From Rozella allomycis CSF55 (Eukaryota), in assembly GCA_000442015.1 (NCBI GenBank), contig KE560847.1:1-61946 (forward strand): a DNA stretch of 61,946 nt, given 5' to 3'. Shown here piece after piece: positions 17,611 through 61,332 of this stretch. Numbering within the stretch: position 1 is the first letter of the stretch; every line of letters starts with the position of its first letter. The position numbers and the translations under genes were made by a program. The notes beneath the pieces are model-generated. The model was not told the origin of the DNA and searched no databases. It saw only the letters and a list, made by a program, of their open reading frames with translations.

Positions 17611-20600
17611 TTAATGTCGTGATTTTCTTAGAGATCTTCTGGTGTTTATGGGCTTTGGAATAATTCTAGAAGAACGCCTTCTAGTGGAAATGTTTGATTC
17701 ACTGTCAGAGTCAACTGAAGCAGATTCAGATTCTGAGATGTTTGTGGTGGAAGAGGAATCAGAAGATGATTTGTTTGAATGAGAAGTAACTTCATCATCA
17801 GATTCCTTTGAAGGTTTGAGTGGAATTCTTTTTGAAATTGTTGGTCTTTGTGCAACAGGCTTTGTATAGCGGGGTTTAATTTGAATTGAAGCATCTTTTG
17901 TATTTTCATTTAAACTTGAAGAATCTTTTGTCTCATTTGAAGATTCATTTGAAGGTTCACTTGAACTTTCTTGTGTTACTTCTTCATCTCTCATTTCTTC
18001 AATTTCACTTTCCTCACTTTCAAAAGAATCTTCTTCTTCACTTTCATTATTGATTTTTCTCCTTTTAACTTTAGTTACTTTTCTTCTATTTCTTCTGTTA
18101 GTTCTTGATGCTCTTCGTGGCACTTTTTCAATATCAGATTCAATGTCAGATCCACTTTCACTTTCATTTTGACTTGCAGATTCACTAGAATAAGTTTCAG
18201 ATTCTTCTTTATCAACCAAAAATGGTTGAGTTAAATTATTCACATCAGAAGAAAAATCATCTCTCTTTTGAACAGTCAAATCAGATGAAAAATCAAAACT
18301 TTTTTGTGAAATTGGCTTTCTTTCTCTCAAACTCTTTCTTATCCTGGTTCCTGGGTCTTCATCTATTTCTGAATTTTCTGATAGATCTCTATTTCTTCTT
18401 CTTAAAGATCTTTTGTTGTTATTGAATAGATTATTTTCAGAGTCAGATTCAATATAAGAAATTCTTTTTCTTTCTCTTCTGGAATCTGTTTGAATAATGG
18501 CACCATCTTCTAAAATTTGTTCCAATTCCTAGATTGAAATAGATGAAATAGATTACGCTTTTTCTTAAATTATTTATAGATTTTTCTTTTAGATTAACAG
18601 AAGATAATTTTTCGAGAATAAAATTCTTGTATTGAACAGATTGAATTCCAATTTCACTTTCAGCTCCATTGTAAAGAATGGCATTTGAAGATAAAGTTTC
18701 AATGTCCCACTTTAAGGCTTCAAAAGATCGATAATAATTATTCTTTAATCTTTCTATAATTTTATTAATACAAATTGGATATCCCACAATCTTGCAATAA
18801 TCTTTATATCGATGGTAATTAACATTGTAAATAAATTCAAAAGAAAATTCTTGTTTTCTAGAAGATTCCATCGCTTTAATAAACTTTCTACAAGGAAATT
18901 CAACGCTCTCTTTAAATCTATCGCCAAATCCTCTTTCTCCTTTAACTCTTTGAAGTTCCCATGGACTCATTGATTCATCATCTCCACTATCATCTTGTCT
19001 CACTAGAAAACATGACCACGGACTGTTTCTATGCTTTGATATATCAATTGGCACATGTCCCACAATTGTTCCCAAATACTTTTCCTTTTGACTATAAATA
19101 CAATAAACTCTCTCGCCAACAGTCCAATTCTGCTCCATCCCCCATTCATACTTTGATTCCAATATTATAAAATCTGGAACATAATCGGAATCATAATACT
19201 CAACAACCAAATCCCTTTCATTTCTATTCAACGTTATCGTAACCCTACAATACGGTGGCATTCCTGGCATATATTCCAATTCTATCAATAAAATTAAATT
19301 TATTTTACTTTTAATAACTCCACTTTCAATACTTTGCAATTCTTCAAAATTCGGAACTGAAAGTGTGACGCCAGGGTATGAGTTTGCATGGGTTGATAAT
19401 CCAAAACTATTCAACGCCATTTCCTCTCCTCTATTCCTTTCATTATGCGATCTCACAAACTCTTCGTGTCCTTGTCTGAAATAAACAACAGAGTCATTAA
19501 TTTGCGGCTGATATGGCGTGTCAAGTCTTTTTGTTTCCAGAATCCAATCTGATGGCAAATATTTTAAATATTCTCGATTCTTTTCTCTTCTCTTCTGCTG
19601 CTCTTCTCTCTTCAATCGCTGTTCAATTCTCCTTTGCTCTTGTTCAGCTCGTCGTTGTTCTTCAAGCTCGTTTTGAAGTCGTTCTCTTTCCCTTTCTTCT
19701 TCCATTCTTCTTCTAGTTCTATCAGTAGAATTCCTACTAAAATCTTCATTAAAGATATCAACAATTCTTCTAGCAGGCCTTTCAACTTCTGGAACTGTAA
19801 AGTCTTCATCATTTTCATCATCAAATATTAAAATATTCCCACTAGTAATCATTTGGCTATCCATTTCAACAACAACATCCTCATCTTCATTATCTGTTGT
19901 ATATATAACCCTTCTATGGCGCGTCTTTTTCAAATAATCTTCACTCACCCCTTGAAAATTCAAATATGATTTATAATCTTGTTTAATTAAATATTCCTCC
20001 CTTTCTCTTGCAACATTTACTCTGTTTTCTATTTCTGAAATTTCCAATTTATTTATCGTCTGGTCATTGTAAGGAATTCTATTCAAATCAATCAATTCAC
20101 CATAAAATGAATTTGGCATAGTCTTTATTATTAATTTAAATTTTATTACTTGAGTTGTTTCATGAATAGGAAGTCCATTTGGATCATACACAACTCTATC
20201 AAAATCAACTATTCTAAATTGCTCATTCTTCAAGTTTTGGAAATACTTGGCATCAATTGAATGCTTTATTATTGTTGAAGATCCCAATGAATCCACAATG
20301 ATTAAACTCTCTCCGTCGGGCGAAAACATTCCATCCAACAAAATTCTTCCATTAAAATCAAATTCTTTTAAAATTTATTATAAATTTATACCTTTAATGC
20401 GTTCACCAGTAACAACGTCCCAAATGATCACCCGTCCATCTTCAAATCCTCCACTAAAAACAACATTGCAGTATTTGGGGTGGCTACTTAGAATAAAAAT
20501 TTCTTTTGAATGGGCTTTAATCGTTCTAATTTGTTTCCCTTTCCATGCATCCCAAATCCTTAAACATCCATCTGATGACGAAAGGATAACAAACCTATCA

Positions 20601-22799: not shown

Positions 22800-25700
22800 T
22801 TATACAGGTGAATGCATGCCGAGTTTGGTGTTGAATTCTAGTTTGGAGCGTTTCTGAAATCTTGTCCAAGAGTCTTTATCCCAACGTTTAACGAATTCAT
22901 TCCAAAGAAGATCAATAAACGGCCAGATAAATACAAGTATCCAAATGAAATAGTCTACATTTCTAAATATTGAAAAGGAAGACGAAGTGGAAATCGATAC
23001 AATAAAGAATACAATAGAAAATAACAGACTAAATTAAAGAATAAAAGAAGACTTACTGATGAACCAAAATCGCTTGGGAGGATATGAATAGATTGGCAAA
23101 GTTCTGTGGATAAAAGTTGAGGATTTCATGATTAAATTTAGACAAAAGAATAATAAGGCAACGTTTTGGCTAAAAATGATGTCATTCCAAGAAGAAAATG
23201 AGGGTGGCTTAAACAAGATAAACTCTCTTTTTGAGAAAAGGCAACTATGGATTAACATTGATGAAAATGATTACAGAGAATAAATTATGGCTGTAAGTAT
23301 ACTTGACGGAATGAATCTTAAACAAAAATACCAAATAAAACGAAAAAAGTCTTTCAAGTGATTCTTATTTTTGACGGGGATTGTTTTTAGAATGTTTGGG
23401 TCGTAAGGCAAGAAGATTAGCGATAAGGAAAGAAGAGGTAAAATAAACCATTGAATCCAAATAATTTGATATCCAGTGAAGCAAGGAGGAAGTGTTAATA
23501 AAAGACAAAGTAAATTGGAGATGGAAACAGACAGTTGAGATCCAATAAATAAAGCAAAAATTTGAATCCCATTTTGCATTAAACATCTCGCTTCTCTTAT
23601 CACTTCAGTCAAAACATAAGGACTTGATTCAAACGGCATAAACATTGCTGAAGGTAAAGAAATCAAAGCAGAACTTAAAACGTTGCTGTTAATTTCCTTC
23701 TTTTTTATATTCGCTGGTCTCATGAAAAGAGGTTCCATCGCTACACTAACATCAGACACAGCAAAGAGTGACGCGTTATCCATGTGTAATGCACTTCCTA
23801 CACAACAAACTACTTCCCCAAATTCCTGATAAAGTTTAATCATGTCTTTAGTATTTTCTAATTTACATTCAGCAAAAATAGAGACATGAAGTGGAATATC
23901 ATCAACAGTCTTTAAATGATTTCTTATATTTTCAACACCCCTGGGCATTCTAGCTTTAATGTATGAAGAATCCAAATAATCAGCCTGTGATGCGTATTCT
24001 TCATGTGGAGTACTCAACAAAATACAACAATTCCAATCAGTTTCAAGTCCCAACTTTTCTGCAAATGCTATTCTTCAATCACCAGATAATATTCTTACCT
24101 TTACTTTCTCTTTCTCCAACAGGCGAAAAATATGAAAATCGTATCCCTGCAACGCCCAAATCTTCAATAAATTCTGTAACATTTTCTTTTATTAAATTTC
24201 CTAAATTCACAATTCCAAGAAAAACTTGATCTGATATCATTTCCATTCGCTCCTCTCCATTCTCTTGCTCGAATGTCATTTCCAAATATAATGGCGAATC
24301 ATTAATAATCTTTTCTTTCAAGGGCCTAAAAGAAAGAGCTATGCACTGTTCATCATTGGACGCTGCATTCTGATAGTATTCTGATATCCTTTTCCTAGTT
24401 GATTCATCCAAAGGTATCAATTCTTTGCCATTCCAATAATCAGAACATAATTTCAATGTCAAATCCACATTCCCCTGGCTCAGCAATTGATATGACCCTG
24501 GTCATTTGTTATGTAAAAAATTACCTTTGCTACTATCAACAATTGCAAGGCATGACATCGATGGAATCTCGAAATCTTTATAAGAATGAAAACTATTTTT
24601 CAAACTTGACGAAAAGGGAGAAAATGCAAATATTTCCATAGTATCTTTATACTTTGTGATGGAATCATTGTTAAACCCAATGGCTCGTGATAATGAGCAA
24701 AGACACGCTATATTTTATTTGTAACCTAGTATTACATTGACGCGAGGTTGGGCATGATCCATAGTTTGTCAATGCGCTCAACTTTCGATGTAAATCTTTC
24801 CTTATTCTACGACCACATCGAGTATTTAAAAATAAATTTAATCCGATCGGCTTTAAATTCCTGTCACTTTTATATCTAAATGTTACGTTAGCCGCTCCTT
24901 CCAAAGGTTCTCTTGAAAAATGTAACCGTTTTGAGAATCCAAATGAACATCAATTGATTCAGTCGAAGATGTATTGTTTATAAACATTAAAGATTTGGCA
25001 GAAGGATAAGGATGAGTTAAAACTCCAATTTTATCCACAAAGCACATCACCGAAACTGATGCTAATGATTCAAGTAAATGGGTTGAATTAGTCAAAGATT
25101 GTTTATCTTTAAAAAACGTCAATTTTAAAACTTTTTTCAAAACTTGGTTGAAAGGTAAAACTACATCCTTCGTTGGTGGCCCAGCCTCAATGTCGAATTC
25201 ATCTTCTCCCAGATCATACAACTCGTATGGAGTCTTTTCTTTCTTTAAAACTTCAAATAAAATTGATATTCTGGCATTGCCATACGCCTTGAATACATAA
25301 AACGTAATCAAGAAACTAAATGGAAACAATGGAAAGCACACAAGCCAAGGGTAATAAAGCACCCAAACAACATCAAATTGTTTAAATACTAAAAACACTG
25401 AAACGCAAATTATCAAGGAAATAATAAACATAATGGGCAAAAGAAAATCGCTCAATCTTCGCTGAACTATTGTACGCTGGTACTCCAATAACGGCTCAGG
25501 TCTTTTACATTTTAAAGTTTCTGATAAAACAGACACAAATGGAGTCTCCATAAGCACAAATTTATACCTTCCAGACAATTGGCTCATTTTATCCCGACTT
25601 CCATAAAATGAACATAAGCTATCGGGCTTCAAATATTCTCCTTTTTCTAAAATAAATTCTCGGCTATTAAAAACAGAATCCTTTGTATCTGTCATTAGAC

Positions 25701-26271
25701 GCATCTTGCAACATGCTATTTCACCATAGGCCATTTCAATCGTATCCCCGGCTACACCGAGAACTGAGGGTATCACATAGACTTGGTTATCTCTAATAAC
25801 TCTAATGCAATCTACTGAACGGGTCCCAAATGGAATCCTTATTTCCTGATAGTCTAATTTAGTATTTGTCTTGATCATGTCTAACACACTTTGAATACGA
25901 TCCCGCTGATCCACTATTTGATTTCTTTGATCTCTGTATCGAATAAATATGTATAGCCATATGGTGCCAATAAATAAGACAACTTCAAGTAGAACAGGGA
26001 CCCAAGAAACAAAAATGGAATCCTTTCCGGTAACAATATCATAAAATACAAATCCGATACAGGAAAGGCAAAAAAGTACTACTAATGCCGTGGTTGAAAT
26101 CGGTATGCGATAAAATTCAAAAATAGAATTCCTTTTTTCCTCTTTGTCAACTATTTCTTGAAGTGCTTCGTGGAGTCTTTTCATCGCAGATTCAGTGGTA
26201 AGACTTGAATTTGTTGATAAAAGAGATGAAATATTTTCATGTGAATCAACGACGTGAAGGTTTGAGCTCAT
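22800..26271 (-). CDS. TMEM94: TMEM94/ERMA P-type-ATPase-like membrane protein
   Basis: DKIGVLT, GIRFSYFS, GLETDWNCCILLS, PRGVENIRNHL..VDDIPL and C-terminal QKRSKLEFNTKLGMHSP. Confidence 0.9.
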
Positions 26272-26375
26272 TTACAAAATTTCACAATAAGAAAAATTGA
26301 TTTTCATGGATTCATTCAGTGTTATTAAACATTTTTTATAACTTTGAATAATTAAAATTTATTACTTAATACTTT

Positions 26376-27059
26376 CTAACTTTCCCAATCTTTTTTGATT
26401 TCAATGTTCCACGTAAAGTCAAGATGACAATTTTTATCATCATCCACAAATCTCGATCGAATAGAATAATTGCCTCTATAAATCAATACTTAATTAAATA
26501 TATGATTTACCATCCCGCTAGGTAATGTTTCTGGTGAAAATGATTTAGTGTAAGGTTCATCGCTAGGGCCATAAGAACCGATCATCTCCTCCATCTTATC
26601 AACTTTAATTCCCTTTCTTTTCATGACTTGAATATACTTCAAGCCAGGTATGACGTCGTTGTTGACGTAAAATGTAACCTTAAGTCTAAAATCAATTCCT
26701 TCTTTAACGACAAAAACCTTATTTTTTAATTCTTCAATTTGCTCTGTTAGGTTTAATTATTATATAATTACCAGTGGTGGATAAATTCATCACATAATCT
26801 GGCCTCCCCTCAGATTCCATGGCCAACTTTGCAATTAATACAGGTTTATTGCTTTTAGTGTCTTCAATTTCTTATTAGAGATCGACTTACTTGAGACGCT
26901 TTTCAATAGAGTCTGTTTCCATTTTGTCAAGGATTCATCATCCCCATCCATCATTTTCAATTCTTCTATAGTTTTCTTTTCCGGCGGTTTATATCCAATG
27001 GTCTCAGAAGGCCTTAAGTCTTCTTCATCATTTGTCAATGGTACATTTGGCACAGTCAT
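26376..27059 (-). CDS. RDI1: Rho GDP-dissociation inhibitor
   Basis: GYKPPEKKTIEEL..MDGDDESLTKWK, KEGIDFRL, MIGSYGP and SRFVDDD. Confidence 0.95.
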
Positions 27060-27107
27060 TGTTATTAGAAAATTACCAAGTCGTTTTGGACACAATCAAA
27101 ATTTAAT

Positions 27108-29176
27108 ATGATCAAGAAATTAGATTTTAGATTGACTTCTACAATAACATCGGGACAAGTAATACCGGAGGTGTCTAGTTTTATTAAAGAACTGGTCGAC
27201 AACTCGTTAGATGCTAACGCTACTTATGTTGGTATTATCACTTCTTATTTATTACTTAGACATAAAGTTTTTTTCTGCGCCTACTATTAAAATTGAGGTT
27301 AGTGACAACGGGACCGGAATATCACCCGATGATTTTTTAAACCTCGGTAAATGTTTAGGGAAAAAATTGTAGGCAAGAAAAATTATACTTCTAAAATATG
27401 TAACTTCGAGGATTTGCAAAATGTTCAAAGTTTAGGCTTCAGGGGAGAGGCTTTGAATTCAATATGTGCATTGTCTCAAGTGTCCATCCGAACGGCCACA
27501 TTAAAATCGTCACCAAAAGGTTTCGATTTAAAATTGAATCATATGGGAGATATCGATTCTAAATCATTGTGTGCAAGGGAGGTATATGGATTTCAAAAAT
27601 TTCCTCAGAAAGGTACGACCGTTTTCATCTCCGAAATTTTTCACAATTTGCCAGTAAGACGGAAGGAATTAGAGAGAAATTTAAAGAAAGAAGTCAATTT
27701 AATCCTAAAGTTAGTTCAAGAGTTTTCTATTTGTTATCCAATGGTCAATTTTAAGTATTCGACATTTAACAAGAATAAGTATAAAATTTGCCCTTAATTT
27801 AACATAGTGAAACAGTCCATTTGGTTACAAAGTCTAATGATTTAAATAGGAGGATAAACGATTATTTCGGAACTAAAAATCTAAGAGAGTTTTCAAAATC
27901 TAACACCAATTTGAACCTTTCTTGTATAATTTCAACAGAAGGTCAGGAAAAGAATAGGCTGGTTTTGATGATTAACAAGAGAATTGCAGAGTCAAAGCTA
28001 ATTTTGTCATTACTAAAGCAAGCCTCAAAAGAAAATGAAATAAAGCCGCACTTTATTTTTCTTTCAATTGAGTTGAGGCAGCGTAAATGAGTATTATCTA
28101 TTTAAGTAGGGGATGTTGATTTCAATTTGGACCCAAACAAGAGGAATGTTATGTTTAGAGATGACGATTCGATTTTTAATACCCTTAAAGCGATTATGAA
28201 TGAAATTTATCAAGAGATTAACAAGTTCAAAGAAGTCGAGCAAGTTCCTTTGAAAAGAAGAATGGAAGAAATAGATTTGCCAATGAAAGCGGTAAAAATG
28301 GATGTGACTGATAATCAAATTGCCAGCGGGCGGCTTGTTGATCAGTCTGAAGGCGTTAGTATAAAAAATAATGTGGAAGAAGAGATTCATGGTTCAAATA
28401 CATTATATAAAAAGAAAATCATTTTTAAAGCGTCATTGAATGACTTTGCTCCATGCAAAGCTCCAAGTGTTTCTCGTGAATCAAATTTGATAATTCATAA
28501 GAAAAACGAAGTATCTTTGGTTGAAGTTAACCAAGAAGATTTTGCTCGCATGAAAATTATCGGGCAATTTAACCATGGGTTTATCATTACAAAATTAAAG
28601 CAAGGGTCCAAAATCCGATTGTTTATTATTGACCAGCATGCCTCAGATGAAAAATACAATTTTGAAATGCTTAATAAATATTCTAAAATCCAAACCCAGC
28701 ATTTAATATCACCTAAAGAATTTAGCTTAACACCCGCTTCTGAACAACTAATTTGGGATTCAAGAGAAGAATTTGAAAAGTTTGGTTTCAATTTTATCTT
28801 TGAAAAAAACAATACACCTGGCCAACGTTTGTCATCAGTTTCAGTCCCAACTGTGATACAGTCGAAATTCGGTACTACTCTATAAAAATGCAAATTAGAA
28901 TCCATAGACAGCATATTTTCAAACTGGAATGATATATCTGAGACCATAGACCTGATTCAAAAAGAATTTAAAAGCTACTACGCAACTAAGGCTTGCAGAA
29001 AATCCGTGATGATAGGAACCCCATTGAACAACTTTCAGATGAGAAAGGTACGATTTTTTATTTTAATTTCATAGATTATCAAACATCTAGAGCAATTAGA
29101 TCAGCCTTGGAATTGTCCCCATGGGAGACCAACGATTAGGCATTTATTGGATTTTGACGAAGTATTAATGTTATAA
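27108..29176 (+). CDS. PMS1: MutL homolog PMS1/PMS2 (mismatch-repair endonuclease)
   Basis: KELVDNSLDA, DNGTG, GFRGEAL, GQFN, DQHASDEK, ACRKS and WNCPHGRPT. Confidence 0.95.
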
Positions 29177-29236
29177 AGCGATTTAATTTTGTTTATTTAG
29201 CGTTTTAAATGAGTTTTGCAATTTCACGGTGATTAT

Positions 29237-29548
29237 TTAGCGCATTTTTTTCAAAGTACTATTTGAGCGGGTAACTGGGCCTAGGGTTTTAGGCGCTGTT
29301 TTGGTTAGATATAATTTCTTCCCTGTCGCCTTTTTTGTTTTCTAATCTTACTAAAAAAATTAATTTACTTTTATCGGAGACTCTATAAAAGCTTCTGTTA
29401 CGTCGTTTAATGGAAATTGTGGTGGTAGGCTGGTTTTTCGTTTTTTGGCATATTCTGGGGTCTTGGAAAAGCGATGAGTTTGTGGATCATAATTCTCTTT
29501 GTCGATAATTTGTCTGCTTCCTTTGGATTTGGGTGTTTGTGTTGACAT
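29237..29548 (-). CDS. 94-aa KEN-box/MR-tail protein, putative APC/C inhibitor (UVI4/OSD1-like)
   Basis: Exon 1 (29548-29369), a 27-nt GT-AG intron (29368-29342) and exon 2 (29341-29237) splice in frame to ...IDKENYDP...SLPPQFPLNDVTEAF..SPIK...STLKKMR*. Confidence 0.6.
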
Positions 29549-29553
29549 ATAAA

Positions 29554-29564
29554 TTGGCGGGAAA
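29554..29564 (-). promoter_or_regulatory. Canonical E2F site TTTCCCGCCAA
   Basis: The plus strand reads TTGGCGGGAAA, separated by 5 bp from the ATG at 29548. Confidence 0.65.
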
Positions 29565-29708
29565 CGCTAGGATTGTTATATTTGTGCAGGGGTCCCTGCG
29601 TCAAAATCCAACTCTTTAACATAATAATAAAGCAAAATTGATTTATTATGTACATTGTGATATTATCATTTCAGTATAATCAATGATGTCATGCTAATGC
29701 TTGATTCC

Positions 29709-30400
29709 TTATTCAAACTGAATCAAATGGCAATTGGGGTATACTAGATTATTTCGAAAATACGAGTTTATGTTCTCTACTATGAATTTCTCAATCTTTC
29801 CGGTGTTTTTTAAGACTAAAACAACAAAACAAAATACAAATACCCTGCCCTTCACCAACATCCGAGTCCATCATGATGTCCAACTGGAGAGGAAACCTGT
29901 TGAATGAAAATTTAAAGATTACCTTTCTTCACTAATTGTAATTACTAATGTATTCGATAAGTAAGCCATTATTATTTCGCCTAAAATTTGAATCTACGTG
30001 GCCTGTTACACTTGACTTTTAGATGTTTTATAAAAAGTTTGATAGGTAGAGAGACAAATGCATGTGTAGGGTAATTTAATCTTAACTCTGTTTCAATAGT
30101 AACACCGGCATTGCCATCATAATCGAGGCTCACATTAACTTGGAACTGCAAAGGCTCAAAATCTTCCTCTTCATTGGGAGTTATATTTGCATCGAAGGCA
30201 TTAATTATTTCTTCAAGAGGATCAGTTATATCCAGGATTTCAATATCCGGAGATTCTTCTCCAAGAAAAATGGCTCGAATGTTTATGTCACCAATAAAAT
30301 CGGGACGTTCTAATTTCTGAAAATATTCATTAAGCGATTGACAAAGCGATTGGTTGATCTTTTCACTTTTCCACTTGTCCCAGAAAAGTTTACATGACAT
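29709..30400 (-). CDS. MDM12: ERMES subunit Mdm12 (SMP domain)
   Basis: LERPDFIGDI, PDIEILDITDP, LRLNYP..AFVSLPIKL, and a C-terminal LKNTGKIEKFI...NLVYP. Confidence 0.9.
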
Positions 30401-30548
30401 TGGAAATTTCCTAATCCTGAATAAAACTAAACGTTTTCACGACATTTGCATTAAAGTCTAAAGACAGAAACCATTTGGTTTACTATATTCGGATTTTCTT
30501 TGTTCCATCTTCCAGCGTAAATAAACAAATAAATTTGCAATTGGCGAA

Positions 30549-31586
30549 ATGGAATATACTGATTTATTGGAATCCTCCTTCTTTTCACCATTAAGAACGT
30601 ATGGTCAGACTCATGGAAATGGATCATTTATAAATTTTACACCATTCAGAGGTACCAATGTAGCGCGGTCAAAATGCTAAGACTTGACTAATAGGTGTGA
30701 CGTTGATGCAAGGAAACAAGAAAGGACTTATGTAAAACTGGAGAGTCCATGCTTGCCACATTTCGCATGTACCAATAGCAGTATGGATGACATACTCAAG
30801 AATACGATCGAGCGTTCCGAGGCTAAGAAACATCTTGATTTTGCCACCTTGAACGAAAGAGACGTATTCAAAAAAGATGCTAGTGTAGCAATGGTCAAAA
30901 AGGAAATAATACCTCTAATGCCAAGGTGTGAGAGATCTCTTGTAAAACTATGCCAAGAGTAAGATTGTACATAAAACATTGAAAGAATTGTTGATTCAAT
31001 CGAGAACATTTGCAAGCAATCAAAGACAATGATAATTGATGATGCGGTGAGTAGACTAGGTAATATGCAAAAAATGTTGTTTTTGACTTGAATGGACCGA
31101 ATAGACGCAGATTTTACGATGTAGCAAATATATTGGAAGGCCTAGATATCATTAAACGAATAAAGAAGGATAAATATTCTTTCAAAGGGCGGCAAGCATT
31201 AAATCACCTTTTAATCTCATTATCTAGTGGTACTGTTAACAAAGTTGACAGTAAGCTTATTTTTGATTTTGTTCAGGAAACAACATTTTGACGCATTGGA
31301 CACGAAATTTGTTAACTAAACTTGTAACTTCGAAAACTGGGGAACTAACCATCAGTGAAGCAGTCGCTTGTTCTAATTATGAAGATTCTTTATCTGATAT
31401 CAAAGGTATAATGTTATAATAATGACGAGAGAATCCAGAGTGCGAAGATTGTATGATATTGTAAATATCTTGAATTTCTTCGGAATTGCAGAACGGCGGC
31501 GAGACGGAAAGAGGAGATTTAAAGTTATTCGCTCAAAATTTGTCGAGGATTTGGTCAATAACAAAGAAAATTTCAACAATTTGTAG
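30549..31586 (+). CDS. Atypical E2F (E2F7/8, DEL-like) with two DNA-binding domains
   Basis: DBD1 has RCERSLVKLCQE...RRRFYDVANILEGL. DBD2 has RVRRLYDIVNILNFFG. The protein ends shortly after DBD2. Confidence 0.85.
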
Positions 31587-31649
31587 GTAAATAAAGTTAA
31601 TTCCAAGGTATTACTATTGTATGTACTTGGTTATTTCGTAAATTTCGGA

Positions 31650-34600
31650 ATGGACAATATCAAAACTTTTTTACGAATACGACCGTTTAATGCACTTGAA
31701 ATTGAAAGAAAGGAGGATAATTTCCAAAGTATTGCTGTTAAAATAGATGAGCAGACGGTGCAGTTCAAGGGACAAAAATTGGACATGTTTTCGTATGACC
31801 ATGTTGGTGATCAGATGACTACACAGGAGGAGGTATTTAAAGTTGTGGGGAAAGTGATGTGTGACCACTGTTTGGAAGGATATAATGCTACTATTTTTGC
31901 ATATGGACAAACCAGCAGTGGAAAGTAAGGACTGCCAGTTTATGTATATTTAGATCTTTTACGATTAACGGCCCTACTAATGAAGAAGGAAATTTAATTT
32001 TGGAGCACCGTGGGTTGATTCCACGTATTTTGGATTATCTTTTTGAGAATATGGAGAGAATGACGACCGAGAATGAAGTTGAGTTTGTGTGTAACTGCTC
32101 GTATGTAGAGATATACAATGAAGTTGTTTATGACCTTTTAGATCCGTCTGGACAGTCGTGTACCTTGAGAGAAGACATCAGAAGGGGAGTTTGTATTTCA
32201 GGCAACACGGAAGAAGAGGTCCATTCATCACAAGAAGCTTATAGAGTAAAAATAGAAATTGAATTTAAAAGTTATTTCTAAAGGGAATCCAAAACCGCCA
32301 TGTTGCTGAAACGGCGATGAATAGAGAGAGTAGTCGAAGTCATTCATTATTTACCATAACGATATTTTCCAAAGTAACAGTGAATGAAGAGAAATAATAA
32401 AGACTAGAGAGGGTGGAATTCTAAATATTGCAGAATCACGATTTAATATTGTGGACTTAGCTGGATCTGAGCGCCAAAGTTTGACTGGTGCAACGGGAAT
32501 CCGGTTGAAAGAGGCTGGCAACATTAATAAATCATTGTTGGCGTTAGGGAATGTGATAAATTCTTTGTTGGATATTGCGATGGGCCGACCAAGACATGTG
32601 CATTATCGGGATTCCAAATTGACGTTTCTGCTTCGAGATTCACTTGGAGGAAATTCAAAGACATTTGTTATAGCGAATGTTTCGCCTTCATCTGCGTGTG
32701 TTGCTGAAACATTATCAACGTTGAGATTTGCACAAAGAGTGAAACAGATTAGAAACAAGGCGATAAAGAATAAGGATGTTGTTGGAGATGTGGATGAGTT
32801 GCAAGCTGAGATTAAAAGGTTGAAGGATGAGTTGAATAAAAGAATTGATTATGAGGTTGATGGGAATAGTAGTGAATTTGTGAAATTTGTGATGGAACAA
32901 GCGCAATTGTTTGAAGAAAAGAATCAGGAAATTTCCAAGTTTCAAAAACGAGTTGAGCAATTAGAAAAAGTTTTGAAGGCATTTGAAGAGAGAAGATCTA
33001 ATGATAGAATGTTGTTGAATTTGAAGGAAGAGAATATAAGAAAGATGAGGGATAAAATATCTGCGATAGAAGAGAGAGTAAAATAGATAAATGAAGTGAT
33101 ATAGGAATTGTATGAAAGAGAGATTGAGTTGTTGAGAAAGAGTAGAGAGAGTGAAACTGATGTGAATATGATTAGTTATCAAAAATTTATCCTGGAACGT
33201 AATGATTAAAAATGGTGATGAGTTTATAGAGGATAACAAATCATTGATTAGAAAGTTGGCTAAATATCAAGTAATGCAGCAAAGAGAAGAAGAAGAAATC
33301 AAAATTAGGAATGAATTTTTTTCTGAAATTTCTGAAATCATAAAAGAAAATTTGAAAAATGAGAAAATTGAAATTAGAGAAAGAAAAGAAGAAAATGAGA
33401 TTGAAGAATTACAGAAAAAGATTGAAGAAATTGAAAGAATGAGAAATAATGAACGAATGGAGTTTGAGGAGGAAAAGAAGAGTTTGGAGGGTAGAATAGA
33501 ATACTACAAGAGAGAAGCAGAAAGGCAAGATGAAGACAAGGAAGAGAATGTGAAAGAATTAAAACAAAAATTAGAAAATTTGGAAAGGAAAAGTAGAAGA
33601 ATGAGCGACGTAAGAAATTTGATTTAAAATAAAAAGTTTGCATTTGAAAGTCAAGCGATTTCACAAGAAAGATTTCATGATTTAATTACGAAAAATAAAG
33701 AATTGATAAACCAATTGAAATCAACAGAAAGTAAACATCATGAATTAATTGATGAAAATGAAAATTTGTCTCTAAAAATTGTAAATCTAGAAAAAAAGAT
33801 GGGAAATATTTTAAATGAAAATTCCAGATTAGATTTCCAAGTAAAAGAAATTTCTGGATCTATTTAAGATTTTAAAGTTTAAAGAAGAAATAAAAAATCA
33901 GCAAGAAGAAAATGAAAATTTAAAGGCAGAATTGCAAAATCTAAATTTAGAAAATGAACAACTTTACGCTAAAATTTCAACTTTAAATTTAGAAAAAGAA
34001 AGTGCCATGTCAGATCTATTTCAATCTATGTTAAAAAAAGAAAATTCTTCAAAGATTCAAGATGATGATGAAAAAAATAGATTTGAAGAATTATTAAATG
34101 AAAAAGAAACAGAATTGGAAAAAATTAAAAATATTTTAAAAGAAAAGGAGTATGAAATTGCAAGGGTTGAAAAAACATTATCTGATCTACAAGGCGAGAT
34201 GCAAAAAACAAAAATAGAACACTTTAATCTACAAGAACAATTTAATGAGAATGAAAAAGAATTAAAAGAAACAAAAAGTGAATTGGGAAAAACAAAAGAT
34301 GAACTACATCAATCTTTAAATGAACTTTTTGAATCAAAACAAGAATTATCAAAAAGAGAAACAAAAATACAAAAAATACAAAACGATTTCGAAAATCTTC
34401 AAATTAAATTTCAAGAGTTTAATAAAAATAAAGAAAAATTACTCCAACTTGAAGAAATAAACAAAAAATTAACAAATGATCTATCCAAGGTTCAGGGGTT
34501 GGCAGATCTAAAAATAGAAAAGGTTCAAGGGGCTCTCTATGATGCTCAAAAATCTTTAAAAGAAAAAGAATTGGAATTAAATAAAACTCAATTAAAGTTA

Positions 34601-35307
34601 AACGACACTCAAAATCAATTACAATTAACATTAAATAATCTTTCCATGAAGAATTCAGAATTAGAATCAAAATTAAATGAATTGTCTCATTTTAAAGAAG
34701 AATACATTTCTCTTCAATCTAAACTTGAATCAGAATTCAAAATCAAAGAAGATCTATTAATGGAAAAGTTGGAAATTTCAGAAATTGAAAATCAAAAGAA
34801 AACGCAAGAATTGGAATCTTTAAAGCACCAATTCGAACGTTTAAATAAACTGTTAAAATCTCAAAATGATAAAATAGAAAACTTCAAAGAAAAAATTAGT
34901 CAACTAGAATTTCATTTATCAAACGCTCAAGAAGACAATGAAAATCTTTTAAATCAACTTCAATCACTACAAGACTCTGAAATGGCCTTGAAATTAGAAG
35001 AAAACGCTAGTCTGTAAATTTATCATCTCTGTATAACCTTAGAATGCAAAAACTTAAAATGGAGATTGATAAATTGGAAAATGAAAAATTGCTCTACAAA
35101 CAAGAATACGATAGAATGGCTCAAGAAAATCAACAATTCTTTCAACACCAAAATCCAAAACAAAAAATTAAATATCACGAAAAAATTAAACATGAAAATA
35201 ATCTTTTAAATGTCGAAATCAAATCCCTTAAAGATGAAGTGGCTAGGTTAATCGCCAAATGTGACGAATTAGAGTCTAACAAAGAAAACAATGCTAGATT
35301 AAAATAG
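31650..35307 (+). CDS. KIF15: Kinesin-12 (KIF15-like)
   Basis: [53 protein letters not shown], a long coiled coil and a C-terminal HMMR-type [11 protein letters not shown]. Confidence 0.9.
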
Positions 35308-35392
35308 CCTTTCTAAATTCAATTAAAATAATTTACAAATTCAATCAAAATAATTTTATATTTTTATTTTTTACATTTCTACAGTTAAATAT

Positions 35393-36203
35393 TTAAGAGT
35401 ATGATGATACTCGTTTCCTTGATATTGATTTACTTCTTAGCATACTCTGCCCAGATATAGATCTTTTATACAATCCACTCACAGAGTTTATCTTTTCACT
35501 GAACGAATGATTGCTCACAAAGGAACTATTAAGACTACTGCTGTTAATAGAACTTCTTCTACCCTCTTCAACTACCTTCTGGCTTTTCACTGAAAGCTTG
35601 GCGATCAATTGCTCAACAGACTCTCCACTCTTGCCATCATTCAATGTTTCTTTTAGAGAACTCAATCTTTCATAGCTGTTGGCACCTCTTATCCGAACAC
35701 TTCTCTTCATTTGCGAAAATTGCTCACTCTTCTTATTCATCTCATCTCTTTCACAGGATTTCCTTTCTGGAATCGGACTAGAAATCGAAGTTGTTGGAAT
35801 AGATGGGTTGCCTGATTCATACACAGAGTCTCGTTCCAGCTCATTAAGTAACATATCATTATCATCCACAAATGAGGCTTCCTACATCATTGTTAAAATT
35901 CACACTTACAATAAAGTTTCTGGATTCGCCAAGAGGTTGTATAGTTTGGTCTCGCCCAAAATCTAGAGACCAATTAAATGTCCTGTCATCAAATATCCTA
36001 GTCAAACAAGAGTCATCATGTATCTGCATAGTATAAACCCTTCCATTTTCGTTATCGGCTTTACACTCTATCTCTTCAAGATCTAGATCTTTAGTATTTC
36101 CCACCATCTGGGATCTGGTGTTTTGGAACAATGATACATCAGAAAAAGATGGAAAATGGATTATGTCGCTTCTGCTGCTGTCAAAGGGATTCACAACACT
36201 CAT
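35393..36203 (-). CDS. Hypothetical Ser-rich protein
   Basis: Two adjacent minus-strand ORFs are probably joined by a short intron. No family recognised. Confidence 0.5.
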
Positions 36204-40420: not shown

Positions 40421-40569
40421 TGCAATATGGGCGGCAAAATTCTCGAAAATTCACAAAAATTGTTCATGTATTGTAACTTTGTTAAACTATTTGTTGAGAA
40501 TTAAATAACTAAATAATTGAATACAGAATAAATGACATTGGAAACACGAAACTTGAAATTTCGTTAATT

Positions 40570-55819: not shown

Positions 55820-55832
55820 TTTTGGCGCCAAA
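55820..55832. promoter_or_regulatory. Palindromic E2F site TTTTGGCGCCAAA
   Basis: Lies 11 bp upstream of the KNL1 ATG (55844). Confidence 0.6.
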
Positions 55833-55843
55833 TTTAGGATATA

Positions 55844-58800
55844 ATGGATGAGCCAAGTACACCAACAAGACGGAACAAATCGGTACATATGGATGATATG
55901 TTTGAAATAGAAGTATGGGATATTAAAATCGCCAGCCCCAGCAGTGTTGGAAGATTTGACAAATCAGGAGAGTCCCAGGTAATATATATGGCGAAAAAGG
56001 AGTAGGGACAATAAAAAAGCGAGGAGAAAAAGCCGACGTGTAAGTTTTGCACCACATACGTTTGTGAGGTAAAATCAGAAAGACGTTGAGAATAGATTGT
56101 TTGATGATCAGCAAGACCGACGATCACCCAACGCAGGGGAAGCAGGACATACACCGAGAAGAAGCCCGAGGAACAAAAGGATTAGTGATTTGTTTAGTCC
56201 AGCGCAAGGAGAACCATTTAGAATCCCCGACTTGTCTTCTGTTTCTAGGAACAGTGATGCATTTAATTTGCGATTGTCACTTGGAGAGTAAAAGAGTAGA
56301 ATGCAATGAAATAGTATGAGTGAACAGCCGCTTGAAGAAGTACTGGAAGTGAAAAAGGAAACGATGGAAACTGTAGAGGAGCCAAAAGTGCAAATAAAAG
56401 AAAAAAAGGAAATGCAAAAAGATGCACAAAAAGTAGCCATGGAAGATGTGATGAAAGTTGAAACTGAATTCGAACAATTAAAAGAAGCTGAAATGAATGA
56501 AGAAGCAACGGGAGATTGGAAAGATCCACAAATCGAAGTTTTGAACCAAGAAGATAGTGTAGTGGAGTATAGAGTGGGACCGAAAGAGAATGAAATAAGC
56601 AAAGTAGACAACGTGAAAGAGAATGAAACACACCAAGTGGATCAAGAAGAAAGTAAAAAGGAAATAGAGTTGACAAACTTTAAAGGTTACTCTGGGAGAT
56701 TACCAAGAGAGTCTGTGCGGTTGATTGAAGATAGTTCAGATGAAGATATGGAGTTTACTGTGCCTATAGGAGATGTGATTGAAGAAATGAATGAAGACAT
56801 GGAAATTACAATGCCAGTAGGCAAATTAATAAAAAACATTGAGAATCCATTCAATGATGTGACTGACGACAGAAAAGTAGAAGAAATGAAGGGAAAAGAA
56901 GTAGAAGTTGAAGAAAAAGTTGAAGTTGAAGAAAAAGTTGAAGTTGAAGAAAAAGTTGAAGTGGAACATGTAATAGTTGATAAAGTTGAACATGCAAAAG
57001 TAGAAGATGTAAAGGTTGAGAAATCAATTCAAATAAATTCGGAAATAGATTCACCAAAAGTGAAAAATGATTTTCCAATTTCTGTTAATTTTGATAGCCC
57101 TGTAATTAATAGTCCCATGGACAAGAGCATCGTTATAGATTTTGAATCTGAAAATGAAAGTGTTTTAATGAATGAAGAATGTGAAGAAGATAATTTCCAA
57201 TCAAAAGCAAAATTTAGGGAATCTATAGCTATTTTAGATCAGAATTCATCAGATTCAGAAATAGATGAGATCACTACGCCACCAAAAAAGATAAAAATAG
57301 TTCCAGATGCTACGCCATTCAAATCACAGACCCCAATTAGTGGAAGAAATATTTTATTGAAACAATCATTTTCAAACAGATTGAAAGAGAATAAAAGAAT
57401 AGAAGGAATTGAGCTAGTCACTCCATTCAAAGACATTAAAAACACTCCATACAAGAATACTATTTTTAACACCCCTGAATTTAACGATAAAATTGAAATT
57501 CTAGAAGAGCCAAAATTTATTGAATTAGATGAAACGACAAGAGATATAACTGCAATGGATGAATATAGTAGAGAAAGGGAGGAATATAATAGAGATGTAA
57601 CTGCAAGGGAAGGATGTAATAGAGATGGACTAAAGATAACTCAAAATTCTTCTTCTTCTACTACAGCTACTACAGCTACTACAGCAAATGCGCCTTTTAA
57701 TAATCCTCTCTTCCCTTTACTGGCAACACCCTTTAAATCAACTCCTTTGAAAAATGTTCCTTTTAAATCTCCTTTACATTCTCTAACCCCTGAATTAAAT
57801 GCATTCTTGAAAGAAAATGAATTGGAAATAAAAAATAATAAAATAAAAACACCCGAATCTGTAAAAAATTCATTCCAATCTTCCAAATTTAATAAATTGT
57901 GTCTTGAAAATGGAATTCACTTTTTAGATGACATGGCCACAGACATTAGAAGAGAAACTTTGATTTTTCCAAATTCTGAAAATAAAATCTCAAACGATAA
58001 ATCAAATCTTTTAAATTTCTGCATTTCAGTCCCTGAATTGGAAGTTTTTGAATTTGGTTGCAACGAATTAGAAAATTATGTTTCTGAAAGCAAAAAATCA
58101 TTTTCTACTCTACAAGAAGCATTCGAAGATAAACCCCTTCCGTCCTTCAACTCTTCCTTTCTGACTCGATTAAAGAACTACTCTAGAGCTCATGCTAAAA
58201 ATCAATGGTACTCTTGGAAACACAATCTTTTATCTCCAATTCACTCTGTTTTAAATGATCATCTAGAACATCTCAAAAGAGATTCATTCTACTTGAATCA
58301 ATTTTCTTCTACTCTGAAAGATTCCAGAAATTTACTAAACCTTAAATTATCGTCAATTAAATCTTTACATCAAAATTTATTACAAAAAGAATCTCTATCT
58401 CTCTCATTAAATGTCTCTAAAATTAATCAATTAAAAGATTTACTCAAAGATCAAACTGATCTATTATCTAAATTGAAATTAAAATCTATTCCTATTCAAT
58501 CCGAAATTTCACAAACTCAAGAATCACTCGATAATCTTTCATTAACAAAAATTAAACTCTTAAATGATATTGCATCCATCAAAGAATCAATTCTAAAATT
58601 CCAATCTTGCTCTTTAAAAAATATTGACACTCTGAAATCCAAACACTCCGTCATCACAAAATTCAAATTAAATTCACCACCGCCAATCTCTTTATTTCCA
58701 TTCAAAAATTTAGCGTCAGTCTCGCTTATTCTATCTGAAATTGAAATATTAAAAGTTTCATTTCACATTAAAATATCAAATGGTGAAATAAACGTCTTTG

Positions 58801-58987
58801 TGGTAAAACCTCAAGTAATCAATCATTTCTAATTTTATAGCTTAAACACAAGTTGGTAATCAAGCCTGGACCAAACTATCCAATCGACGCTCTATCAATC
58901 AATCCAATAATTCAATACGGCCCTATTGTGGATTATCCAACTTCTTATGTTGGCTATCTATCTGAATTTTGCAATAAATTGATTTGA
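55844..58987 (+). CDS. SPC105: Kinetochore scaffold Spc105/KNL1 (Spc7)
   Basis: The N-terminal exon has the GILK and SRRVSF PP1-docking motifs. MELT-like DMEFT and DMEIT follow, then an Spc7 domain (PELEVFEFGCNEL...LKNYSR..AK.QWY.W). Confidence 0.9.
56901..56961 (+). repeat. 18-bp coding tandem repeat (VEVEEK x ~3.5)
   Basis: GTTGAAGTTGAAGAAAAA repeated. Boundaries approximate. Confidence 0.8.
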
Positions 58988-61209: not shown

Positions 61210-61236
61210 GTCTTGGTTCTGCCAATGACATAAATG

Positions 61237-61267
<31 letters not shown>

Positions 61268-61332
61268 GGCCCCTGCAAAAGGATGACACGCATAACTTGA
61301 GATTAGCGGTACATTGTACCGGCAATTTTTTT
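61210..61332 (+). ncRNA. U6: U6 spliceosomal snRNA
   Basis: AAAATTGGAACGATACAGAGAAGATTAGCATGGCCCCTGC..AAGGATGACACGCA core (ACAGAGA box, AGC triad, ISL), a 5' hairpin and an oligo-T Pol III terminator at 61326-61332. Confidence 0.97.

Follow-up and report, generated by a model that had tools for sequence, protein, structure and literature searches.

A candidate unannotated two-exon gene in Rozella allomycis, with a KEN box, a predicted Met-Arg tail and an E2F site just ahead of its start codon

In Rozella allomycis CSF55, contig KE560847.1 (GCA_000442015.1) was analysed over 61,946 nt, and this whole stretch is hereafter called the window. An unannotated candidate gene of two exons and 94 codons lies on its minus strand (Table 1), between a PMS1-type MutL gene on one side and a gene with an MMM1/SMP domain on the other, in a spacer of about 530 nt. 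The ATG at 29548-29546 is the first of the candidate frame, since in-frame TAG and TAA codons stand 21 and 30 nt upstream. In the genomic DNA exon 1 is followed by GTAAATTAA, so the unspliced frame ends after two further codons and would encode 62 aa. A preliminary description of this DNA had proposed that removal of a 27-nt intron gives a product of 94 aa, and joining both exons by their coordinates with a script returned exactly the same sequence. The predicted product is very basic (pI 10.4), with 17 lysines, 13 threonines, 9 prolines and 8 serines among its 94 residues. This composition and a GRAVY of -1.14 indicate a protein that would be disordered, which is typical of cell-cycle clients. 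The window also encodes an unfused DHFR, the MMM1/SMP-domain protein, a MutL C-terminal domain, Ada2, importin-alpha, a bromodomain-WD protein, a kinesin, an Spc7 kinetochore protein and an E2F_TDP-domain protein.

Table 1. Features of the candidate gene and of the sequence ahead of it, in positions of the window.
Feature	Position	Strand	Description
Imperfect second E2F-like site TTTGACGC	29598..29605	-	7 of 8 positions; 57 nt upstream of ATG
Exact E2F consensus TTTCCCGC	29557..29564	-	CAAT follows; 8 nt between site and ATG; site at -16
Exon 1 (predicted)	29369..29548	-	60 codons from ATG; holds the KEN-degron match, KKRK and the degenerate D-box-like segment; codon score +7.9 bits, best of six frames
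Extended KEN-degron match D-K-E-N-Y-D-P	29483..29503	-	residues 16-22 (KEN 17-19); pattern match; flanks per He 2013
KKRK, classical NLS-like basic cluster	29435..29446	-	residues 35-38; pattern match
D-box-like spacing P-Q-F-P-L-N-D-V-T	29396..29422	-	residues 43-51; P at P-1, L at P4, V at P7; Q replaces the defining R; no N at P9
Intron (predicted)	29342..29368	-	27 nt, GTAAAT...TTAG; multiple of 3; four in-frame stops; internal AG 29352-29351
Exon 2 (predicted)	29237..29341	-	34 codons (29341..29240) and TAA 29239-29237; lysine-rich; KKLYL; MR end at codons 29245-29240; codon score +5.9 bits, best of six

The predicted intron conforms to the standard of this genome, its length being modal and its ends common ones. 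GT..AG elements joining two open frames exceed the control dinucleotide pairs in the window at 26-30 nt only. When GTA..AG joins of two frames, each of at least 60 codons, were counted by length, we found 8, 11, 13, 9 and 9 at 26, 27, 28, 29 and 30 nt, respectively, and a single one at 18 nt. Among the 52 joins of 25-31 nt, a GTAAAT donor is present in 3 and a TTAG acceptor in 7, and an internal AG is skipped in 26, some of them closely resembling the candidate intron. The intron of the preliminary description fits this class in its length, its 5' GTAAAT and its 3' TTAG, and the 27-nt splice would follow from the intron rules of the genome. Its donor sits 2 codons ahead of the stop of the unspliced frame. 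An alternative splice of 18 nt, using the internal AG, would lead to an immediate stop with no MR tail. It is disfavoured: the 27-nt form agrees with the genome in length and ends, and 18-nt joins were found only once. The 18-nt splice or retention of the intron would give 60 or 62 aa, respectively, so that the MR tail is present under the predicted 27-nt splice only and wholly depends on it. In S. pombe, the mes1 intron is described as being spliced in meiosis only (PMC8060462), and as a loose parallel a retained intron here would keep the KEN box and leave out the MR tail. The tiny introns also raised the question of a ciliate code (TAA and TAG read as Q), which we rejected because standard-code ORFs stay open for up to 840 aa and the in-frame TAA codons of the neighbouring PMS1-type gene fall within 27-nt GT..AG elements joining its exons.

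Database searches returned no relatives. The read-through translation gave 0 phmmer matches at E<=1e-3 against 1.84 billion representatives, a match to itself included, and the 62-aa unspliced form is absent from the collection as an exact sequence. The Rozella DHFR is present in that same collection, which bears out the earlier view of the gene as hidden, in the sense of missing from the public proteome. No Pfam family matched, whether the query was the read-through translation (E<=0.01) or either exon by itself (E<=10). A word-index homologue search with exon 1 yielded no candidate, and no RNA family was found by Rfam at the locus. No relative turned up in 30 metagenomic loci, chosen as encoding PMS1 relatives (best segments 25-73% identical), where local tblastn with the candidate gave E values of about 1 at best. 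A phmmer search of the PDB with exon 1 matched Kelch-repeat proteins only, which we consider spurious, as the matches come from a repeated E-x-YDP-x-T word and no single stretch is significant. DNA contigs from four runs (X3, X6, X7 and X8), compared with positions 24000-36000, show zero differences between 27745 and 30076; at about one strain difference per kb, this variant-free interval says nothing about constraint.

It could be that there is no gene here, and that a chance ORF of 60 codons in the spacer is followed by a chance GT..AG, the E2F-like octamer being idle or serving elsewhere. The absence from the deposited proteome is in line with this, as is the abundance of one-intron ORF models, of which the window holds 361. 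Genes of fewer than 100 codons are commonly missed by automatic annotation. Codon usage does not separate coding from decoy sequences in this case, because the candidate lies in the overlap zone: its 0.147 bit/codon falls between the means of coding windows (0.284) and out-of-frame decoys (-0.03), and 21% of these decoys reach its score or exceed it, which again suits a chance ORF. Against chance, the proposed frame ranks first of six in both exons (in exon 2, one reverse frame scores +2.4), and the donor close to the unspliced stop comes with an intron of modal length and ends. The 34 open codons of exon 2 alone are only weakly improbable, with a chance of about 0.07 estimated from composition.

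The strongest argument for the candidate as a gene is the placement of the E2F site in its promoter. A perfect E2F site just upstream of the ATG had been noticed before, and we find the consensus there as an exact match. Over the whole window TTTSSCGC is not enriched: 3.35 matches would be expected for the 7 observed, a number also reached in 7 of 100 shuffles. These matches represent six loci, and at three of them the site is followed, after 8-15 nt, by an ATG with an open frame of at least 53 codons. Taking each ORF of 50 or more codons from its first ATG, the window has 147 ORF starts; 3 of them have an exact site in the 45 nt ahead, in every case at -16 to -23. For three of six sites to fall within 45 nt of such starts by random placement, an arithmetic estimate gives p ~0.02; for the same within an 8-nt band, which was picked after the data were seen, it gives p ~1e-4. 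The placement at the candidate looks non-random and meaningful.

The other two genes with such a site are bona fide ones, with the site at a similar distance from the ATG, which argues against a chance ORF. The first is an Spc7/KNL1 kinetochore gene, identified by a large exon with the Pfam Spc7 domain (6.2e-17) and a MELT motif, and the palindrome TTTGGCGCCAAA precedes its first exon. The second is O9G_003035, annotated as coiled-coil and deposited as a hypothetical protein, and the deposited protein starts at exactly the ATG behind the E2F site. The imperfect second site ahead of the candidate carries low weight because matches of 7 of 8 positions are not enriched at starts (15 of 147 ORF starts vs 7.2% of random 60-nt windows). 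A gene with an E2F_TDP domain is found at 31064-31583, about 1.5 kb from the candidate, with two DNA-binding halves (2.3e-9 and 1.2e-4), and E2F is described as persisting in many early-diverging fungi (Medina 2016, PMC4862756; Amses 2022, PMC9457484). Taken as a whole, we regard the candidate as probably a real gene, and a chance ORF as rather unlikely.

Within the predicted protein, the KEN box DKENYDP of the preliminary description was found in exon 1. The alignment of 46 validated KEN boxes reported by He 2013 (PMC3690534) has D or N at P-1 and P at P+3, with a structural reason for each, and DKENYDP carries both of these flanks. The pattern [DN]KENxxP occurs once in the 58,953 six-frame residues of the window, among 26 KEN tripeptides, and that one occurrence is the candidate. 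KEN tripeptides are often non-functional. The earlier claim of a terminal LxxMR also agrees with the letters, the spliced product ending in L-K-K-M-R under the predicted 27-nt splice. Several CDK sites had been claimed as well; three [ST]P sites exist (T5, T30 and S57), and SPIK is the only one with the full [ST]Px[KR] consensus. In exon 2, the KKLYL segment fits the cyclin-docking pattern [RK]xLx[FLIVMP]. Three K[KR]x[KR] clusters are present, and KKRK could serve for nuclear import.

In order to see how often KEN and MR coincide, we enumerated all small-ORF models of 60-150 aa in the window, allowing at most a single GT..AG intron of 24-32 nt. Among the 453 such models (92 unspliced and 361 with one intron), KEN is present in 33 and a terminal MR in 3; the candidate alone combines the two. 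Under independence about 0.2 models with both would be expected per window, and KEN plus MR alone is therefore not compelling. In windows simulated by a second-order Markov model, which hold fewer ORFs and fewer KEN than the real one, KEN with an MR end was found in 0 of 80 and KEN with an [MIL]R end in 3 of 80. Both features of the candidate were picked after being seen.

These counts bear on the possibility of a real small gene in which the APC/C motifs are unused, its product being a basic, lysine-rich and disordered nuclear, nucleolar or chromatin protein with KEN and MR present by composition. Lysine makes up 17 of the 94 residues, the basic clusters number three, and KEN is common in a proteome rich in K, E and N, as the 26 six-frame occurrences and the 33 of 453 models indicate; furthermore, there are no homologues showing that KEN or MR is kept. 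On the other hand, the candidate KEN alone in the window has both consensus flanks, its E2F placement is shared with a kinetochore gene, and a KEN and an MR end are jointly rare (1 of 453 models, 0 of 80 simulations). The absence of this combination from the simulated windows speaks against a chance ORF too. We consider unused motifs unlikely, to about the same degree as the absence of a gene.

Between the KEN box and the tail, the SLP..PL.DVT segment previously claimed was found at S40-T51, as SLPPQFPLNDVT (S-L-P-P-Q-F-P-L-N-D-V-T). A motif scan of the 94 aa revealed no RxxL and no [RK]xxLxx[ILVM]; the nearest sequence is QFPLNDV, with Q at P1, in agreement with the caveat already attached to this segment, that the D-box arginine is replaced by Q. 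He 2013 (PMC3690534) notes a P at P-1 of D-boxes, and describes the Orc1 O-box as a D-box without the R. Since such R-less D-boxes exist, the candidate segment may still serve as a D-box, and we treat it as a weak, low-information match. Other identities were set aside. There is no ABBA or A-motif by motif scan, as would be expected for Acm1, and no Qxx[LIVM]xx[FY][FY], as for PAF15 and other PIP-box proteins. The candidate is too short for a securin, and no acidic or hydrophobic separase-binding segment is visible. A small APC/C subunit was set aside on motif scans and general knowledge.

The preliminary description saw in this sequence a candidate fungal counterpart of the plant UVI4/OSD1 inhibitors, usually described as plant-specific. 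Both have a KEN or GxEN box, then a segment of the xxPLxD[IV]T type (for the plant proteins, only as quoted in that description), and both would end in an MR tail if the candidate is spliced as predicted. The plant inhibitors exceed the candidate in length, the D-box of OSD1 being placed at residues 104-110 (PMC3406007), and they differ in having the D-box arginine, where the candidate has Q. In the experiments reported by Cromer 2012 (PMC3406007), this arginine is functionally required: changing RxxL to AxxA in OSD1 abolishes binding of CCS52A1, and the D-box mutant barely complements, while the GxEN box is dispensable in planta and the MR tail is essential. Kinship with this family finds no support, given the lack of any Pfam family or phmmer match under the thresholds above and of an RxxL. 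As there is no detectable homology, no family membership can be claimed for the candidate.

[quoted passage not shown] Like the candidate in its predicted spliced form, Mes1 is fungal and very small, with an upstream KEN box and a C-terminal MR (PMC3406007), and it is encoded by a gene with one intron (PMC8060462). Nevertheless, it acts through degron binding of coactivators with a true D-box, and its binding to Slp1/Fzr1 is reported to need the D-box together with KEN (Kimata 2011, PMC3084671), whereas the candidate is without a D-box. Mes1 is also meiosis-specific, while the candidate carries an E2F site. The size of Mes1 is about 100 aa.

Acm1, a Cdh1 pseudosubstrate inhibitor of Saccharomyces cerevisiae, resembles the candidate as a disordered, CDK-regulated fungal protein whose KEN has a P at P+3 overlapping a CDK site (PMC3690534), but it needs its D-box 3 and A motif and works with 14-3-3 (PMC3690534), and neither an ABBA-type motif nor RxxL is present in the candidate. 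The closest motif set is that of Nek2A, which has KEN and an MR tail with no D-box needed (PMC5717348), a set that marks a substrate. According to Alfieri 2017 (PMC5717348), the MR tail of Nek2A docks on the core APC/C independently of the coactivator, and KEN-dependent destruction comes later. Nek2A differs in being a kinase whose tail works with a leucine-zipper dimer (PMC5717348). The candidate has no kinase domain and 0 Pfam families, and no leucine-zipper-like heptads or coiled coil were seen by eye and from the composition of its 94-aa sequence.

In the light of these comparisons, one possibility is a dedicated pseudosubstrate or competitive APC/C inhibitor of the Mes1, Acm1 and OSD1 kind, three proteins that are grouped as likely pseudosubstrate inhibitors by He 2013 (PMC3690534). 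In such an inhibitor, KEN and the segment with Q for R would fill the degron receptors while MR clamps the TPR lobe, so that substrates would be blocked until its removal. The small size fits, as does the predicted MR tail, known from OSD1 and Mes1 (PMC3406007), and the 24 residues from KEN to P-Q-F-P-L-N-D-V-T are on the scale of the 20 between the GxEN and the D-box of OSD1 (PMC3690534). Degenerate D-boxes without the R are known from the Orc1 O-box (PMC3690534), and the single intron, whose retention would remove the tail, has a loose parallel in mes1 with its splicing restricted to meiosis (PMC8060462). Against an inhibitor, the candidate has no RxxL, while the D-box is needed for the OSD1-CCS52A1 interaction and contributes to Mes1 binding (PMC3406007, PMC3084671); it has no ABBA or A-motif as in Acm1 and no similarity to any protein by Pfam and phmmer; Nek2A is a plain substrate with KEN and an MR tail (PMC5717348); and expression driven by E2F would be no less expected of an S-phase or mitotic client than of a meiotic inhibitor. 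From the proposal of an E2F-driven pseudosubstrate inhibitor, the E2F part is supported, the site being placed as in two other genes, while the inhibitor role is left without a D-box. Descent from UVI4/OSD1 and an inhibitor mechanism are both unsupported for the candidate. The sequence cannot tell an inhibitor from a mere substrate, and we consider a dedicated inhibitor quite unlikely, somewhat more so than unused motifs.

We tentatively prefer to see the candidate as a real gene, induced by E2F, with a nuclear and disordered product that is a client (substrate) of the APC/C, and give this a little less than an even chance. It is preferred because KEN plus MR without a D-box is the module set of Nek2A, and Nek2A is a substrate. 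A link with the cell cycle and the APC/C is plausible from the short motifs and the well-placed E2F site; it is our inference that the candidate is transcribed, spliced and translated, and that its product is nuclear, binds the APC/C and is degraded. As a client, it would be expressed from a very short leader on which a factor of the E2F family binds the exact site, being switched on with genes acting from G1/S to mitosis, e.g. Spc7/KNL1. The disordered, basic product of 94 aa would enter the nucleus by means of KKRK, and CDK could phosphorylate it at SPIK, possibly docking its cyclin on KKLYL. The DKENYDP degron would then bind the top face of the Cdc20/Cdh1 WD40 propeller, and, as in Nek2A, the predicted C-terminal Met-Arg may further anchor the protein by contacting the TPR subunits of the APC/C directly. 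Such a client would disappear in mitosis/G1. While bound, it would necessarily compete with other KEN substrates, and this competition could be its purpose, as in Mes1, or a side effect.

A bolder view is that mini-proteins throttling the APC/C with a KEN box and an MR tail are an ancient eukaryotic class rather than separate inventions of plants and fission yeast. The Rozella gene would be the basal-fungal representative of a class too fast-evolving to be recognised and often too small to be annotated, with its D-box decayed to Q-x-x-L and its 27-nt intron possibly acting as a switch of the MR tail. We hold this to be very improbable, far more so than any of the explanations weighed above.

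Small disordered KEN-box proteins acting as APC/C clients and inhibitors are already known, as is a fungal inhibitor with KEN, D-box and MR tail in Mes1, and nothing in this picture is overturned. If the candidate is real, the annotation of Rozella, a key early-diverging fungus, would gain a small gene that it has missed, and the 94-aa product, easily synthesised, would be a candidate for feeding or restraining the APC/C in a lineage that uses E2F. The exact E2F sites found 8-15 nt ahead of the start codons of three genes, Spc7/KNL1 among them, suggest a simple rule for finding cell-cycle genes genome-wide. This rule would reach unannotated genes too, and it may outweigh the candidate protein itself in usefulness.

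The introns of this genome, as seen across the whole window, are tiny and of narrow size range (26 to 30 nt, mode 28), beginning with GTA and mostly ending in [AT]AG, and in half of the cases an internal AG is passed over. The length is a multiple of 3 in 20 of the 52 introns. In-frame stops were found in all three introns read base by base, two from the flanking PMS1-type MutL gene and the one from the candidate, the unannotated two-exon gene for a 94-aa KEN-box protein. A full-length U6 spliceosomal RNA gene is also present.

Upstream of the candidate lies an MMM1/SMP-domain gene (29709-30436, minus strand). Its single-ORF form (29984-30400) was absent from the protein collection searched. 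Read by eye, the gene appears to run on through three further tiny introns and would then end in a TAA at ~29709, leaving only ~160 nt before the ATG of the candidate.

Compared with contigs from other DNA runs, the window is invariant at 27745-30076, while clustered differences and small insertions occur at 30859-30953 and 32513-32687. These clusters, which resemble the trace of another haplotype or strain, sit in and near an E2F-like gene and within a kinesin gene. The former is an atypical E2F-like gene (30700-31586) with two E2F_TDP halves. A kinesin motor ORF (31587 onward) starts within ~100 nt of its end on the same strand, and they may be two separate genes or a single fused model.

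The Spc7/KNL1 orthologue carries a MELT motif and, in an early exon (about 56020-56060, by eye), a putative RRVSF-type PP1-docking sequence. For a reduced parasite, this makes a fairly complete set of N-terminal KNL1 motifs.

Features located in the window
Feature	Position	Strand	Remark
MMM1/SMP-domain gene introns	29982-30010; 29888-29913; near 29830 (~28 nt)	minus	by eye
Example introns	28083-28109; 28879-28905; 29049-29075; 18529-18556
E2F_TDP halves	31064-31288; 31422-31583
Spc7/KNL1 orthologue	56310-58829	plus
Exact E2F site, Spc7/KNL1 kinetochore gene	55821-55832		palindrome TTTGGCGCCAAA
Exact E2F site, O9G_003035	40431-40438		annotated coiled-coil protein
Exact E2F site, candidate	29557-29564
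U6 RNA	61210-61318	plus	Rfam RF00026, 88.5 bits

Three start codons in the window, those of Spc7/KNL1, O9G_003035 and the candidate, have an exact E2F site (TTTSSCGC) 8 to 15 nt upstream, a distance that implies very short leaders. This placement near the ATG suggests a simple promoter rule that could mark cell-cycle genes genome-wide.
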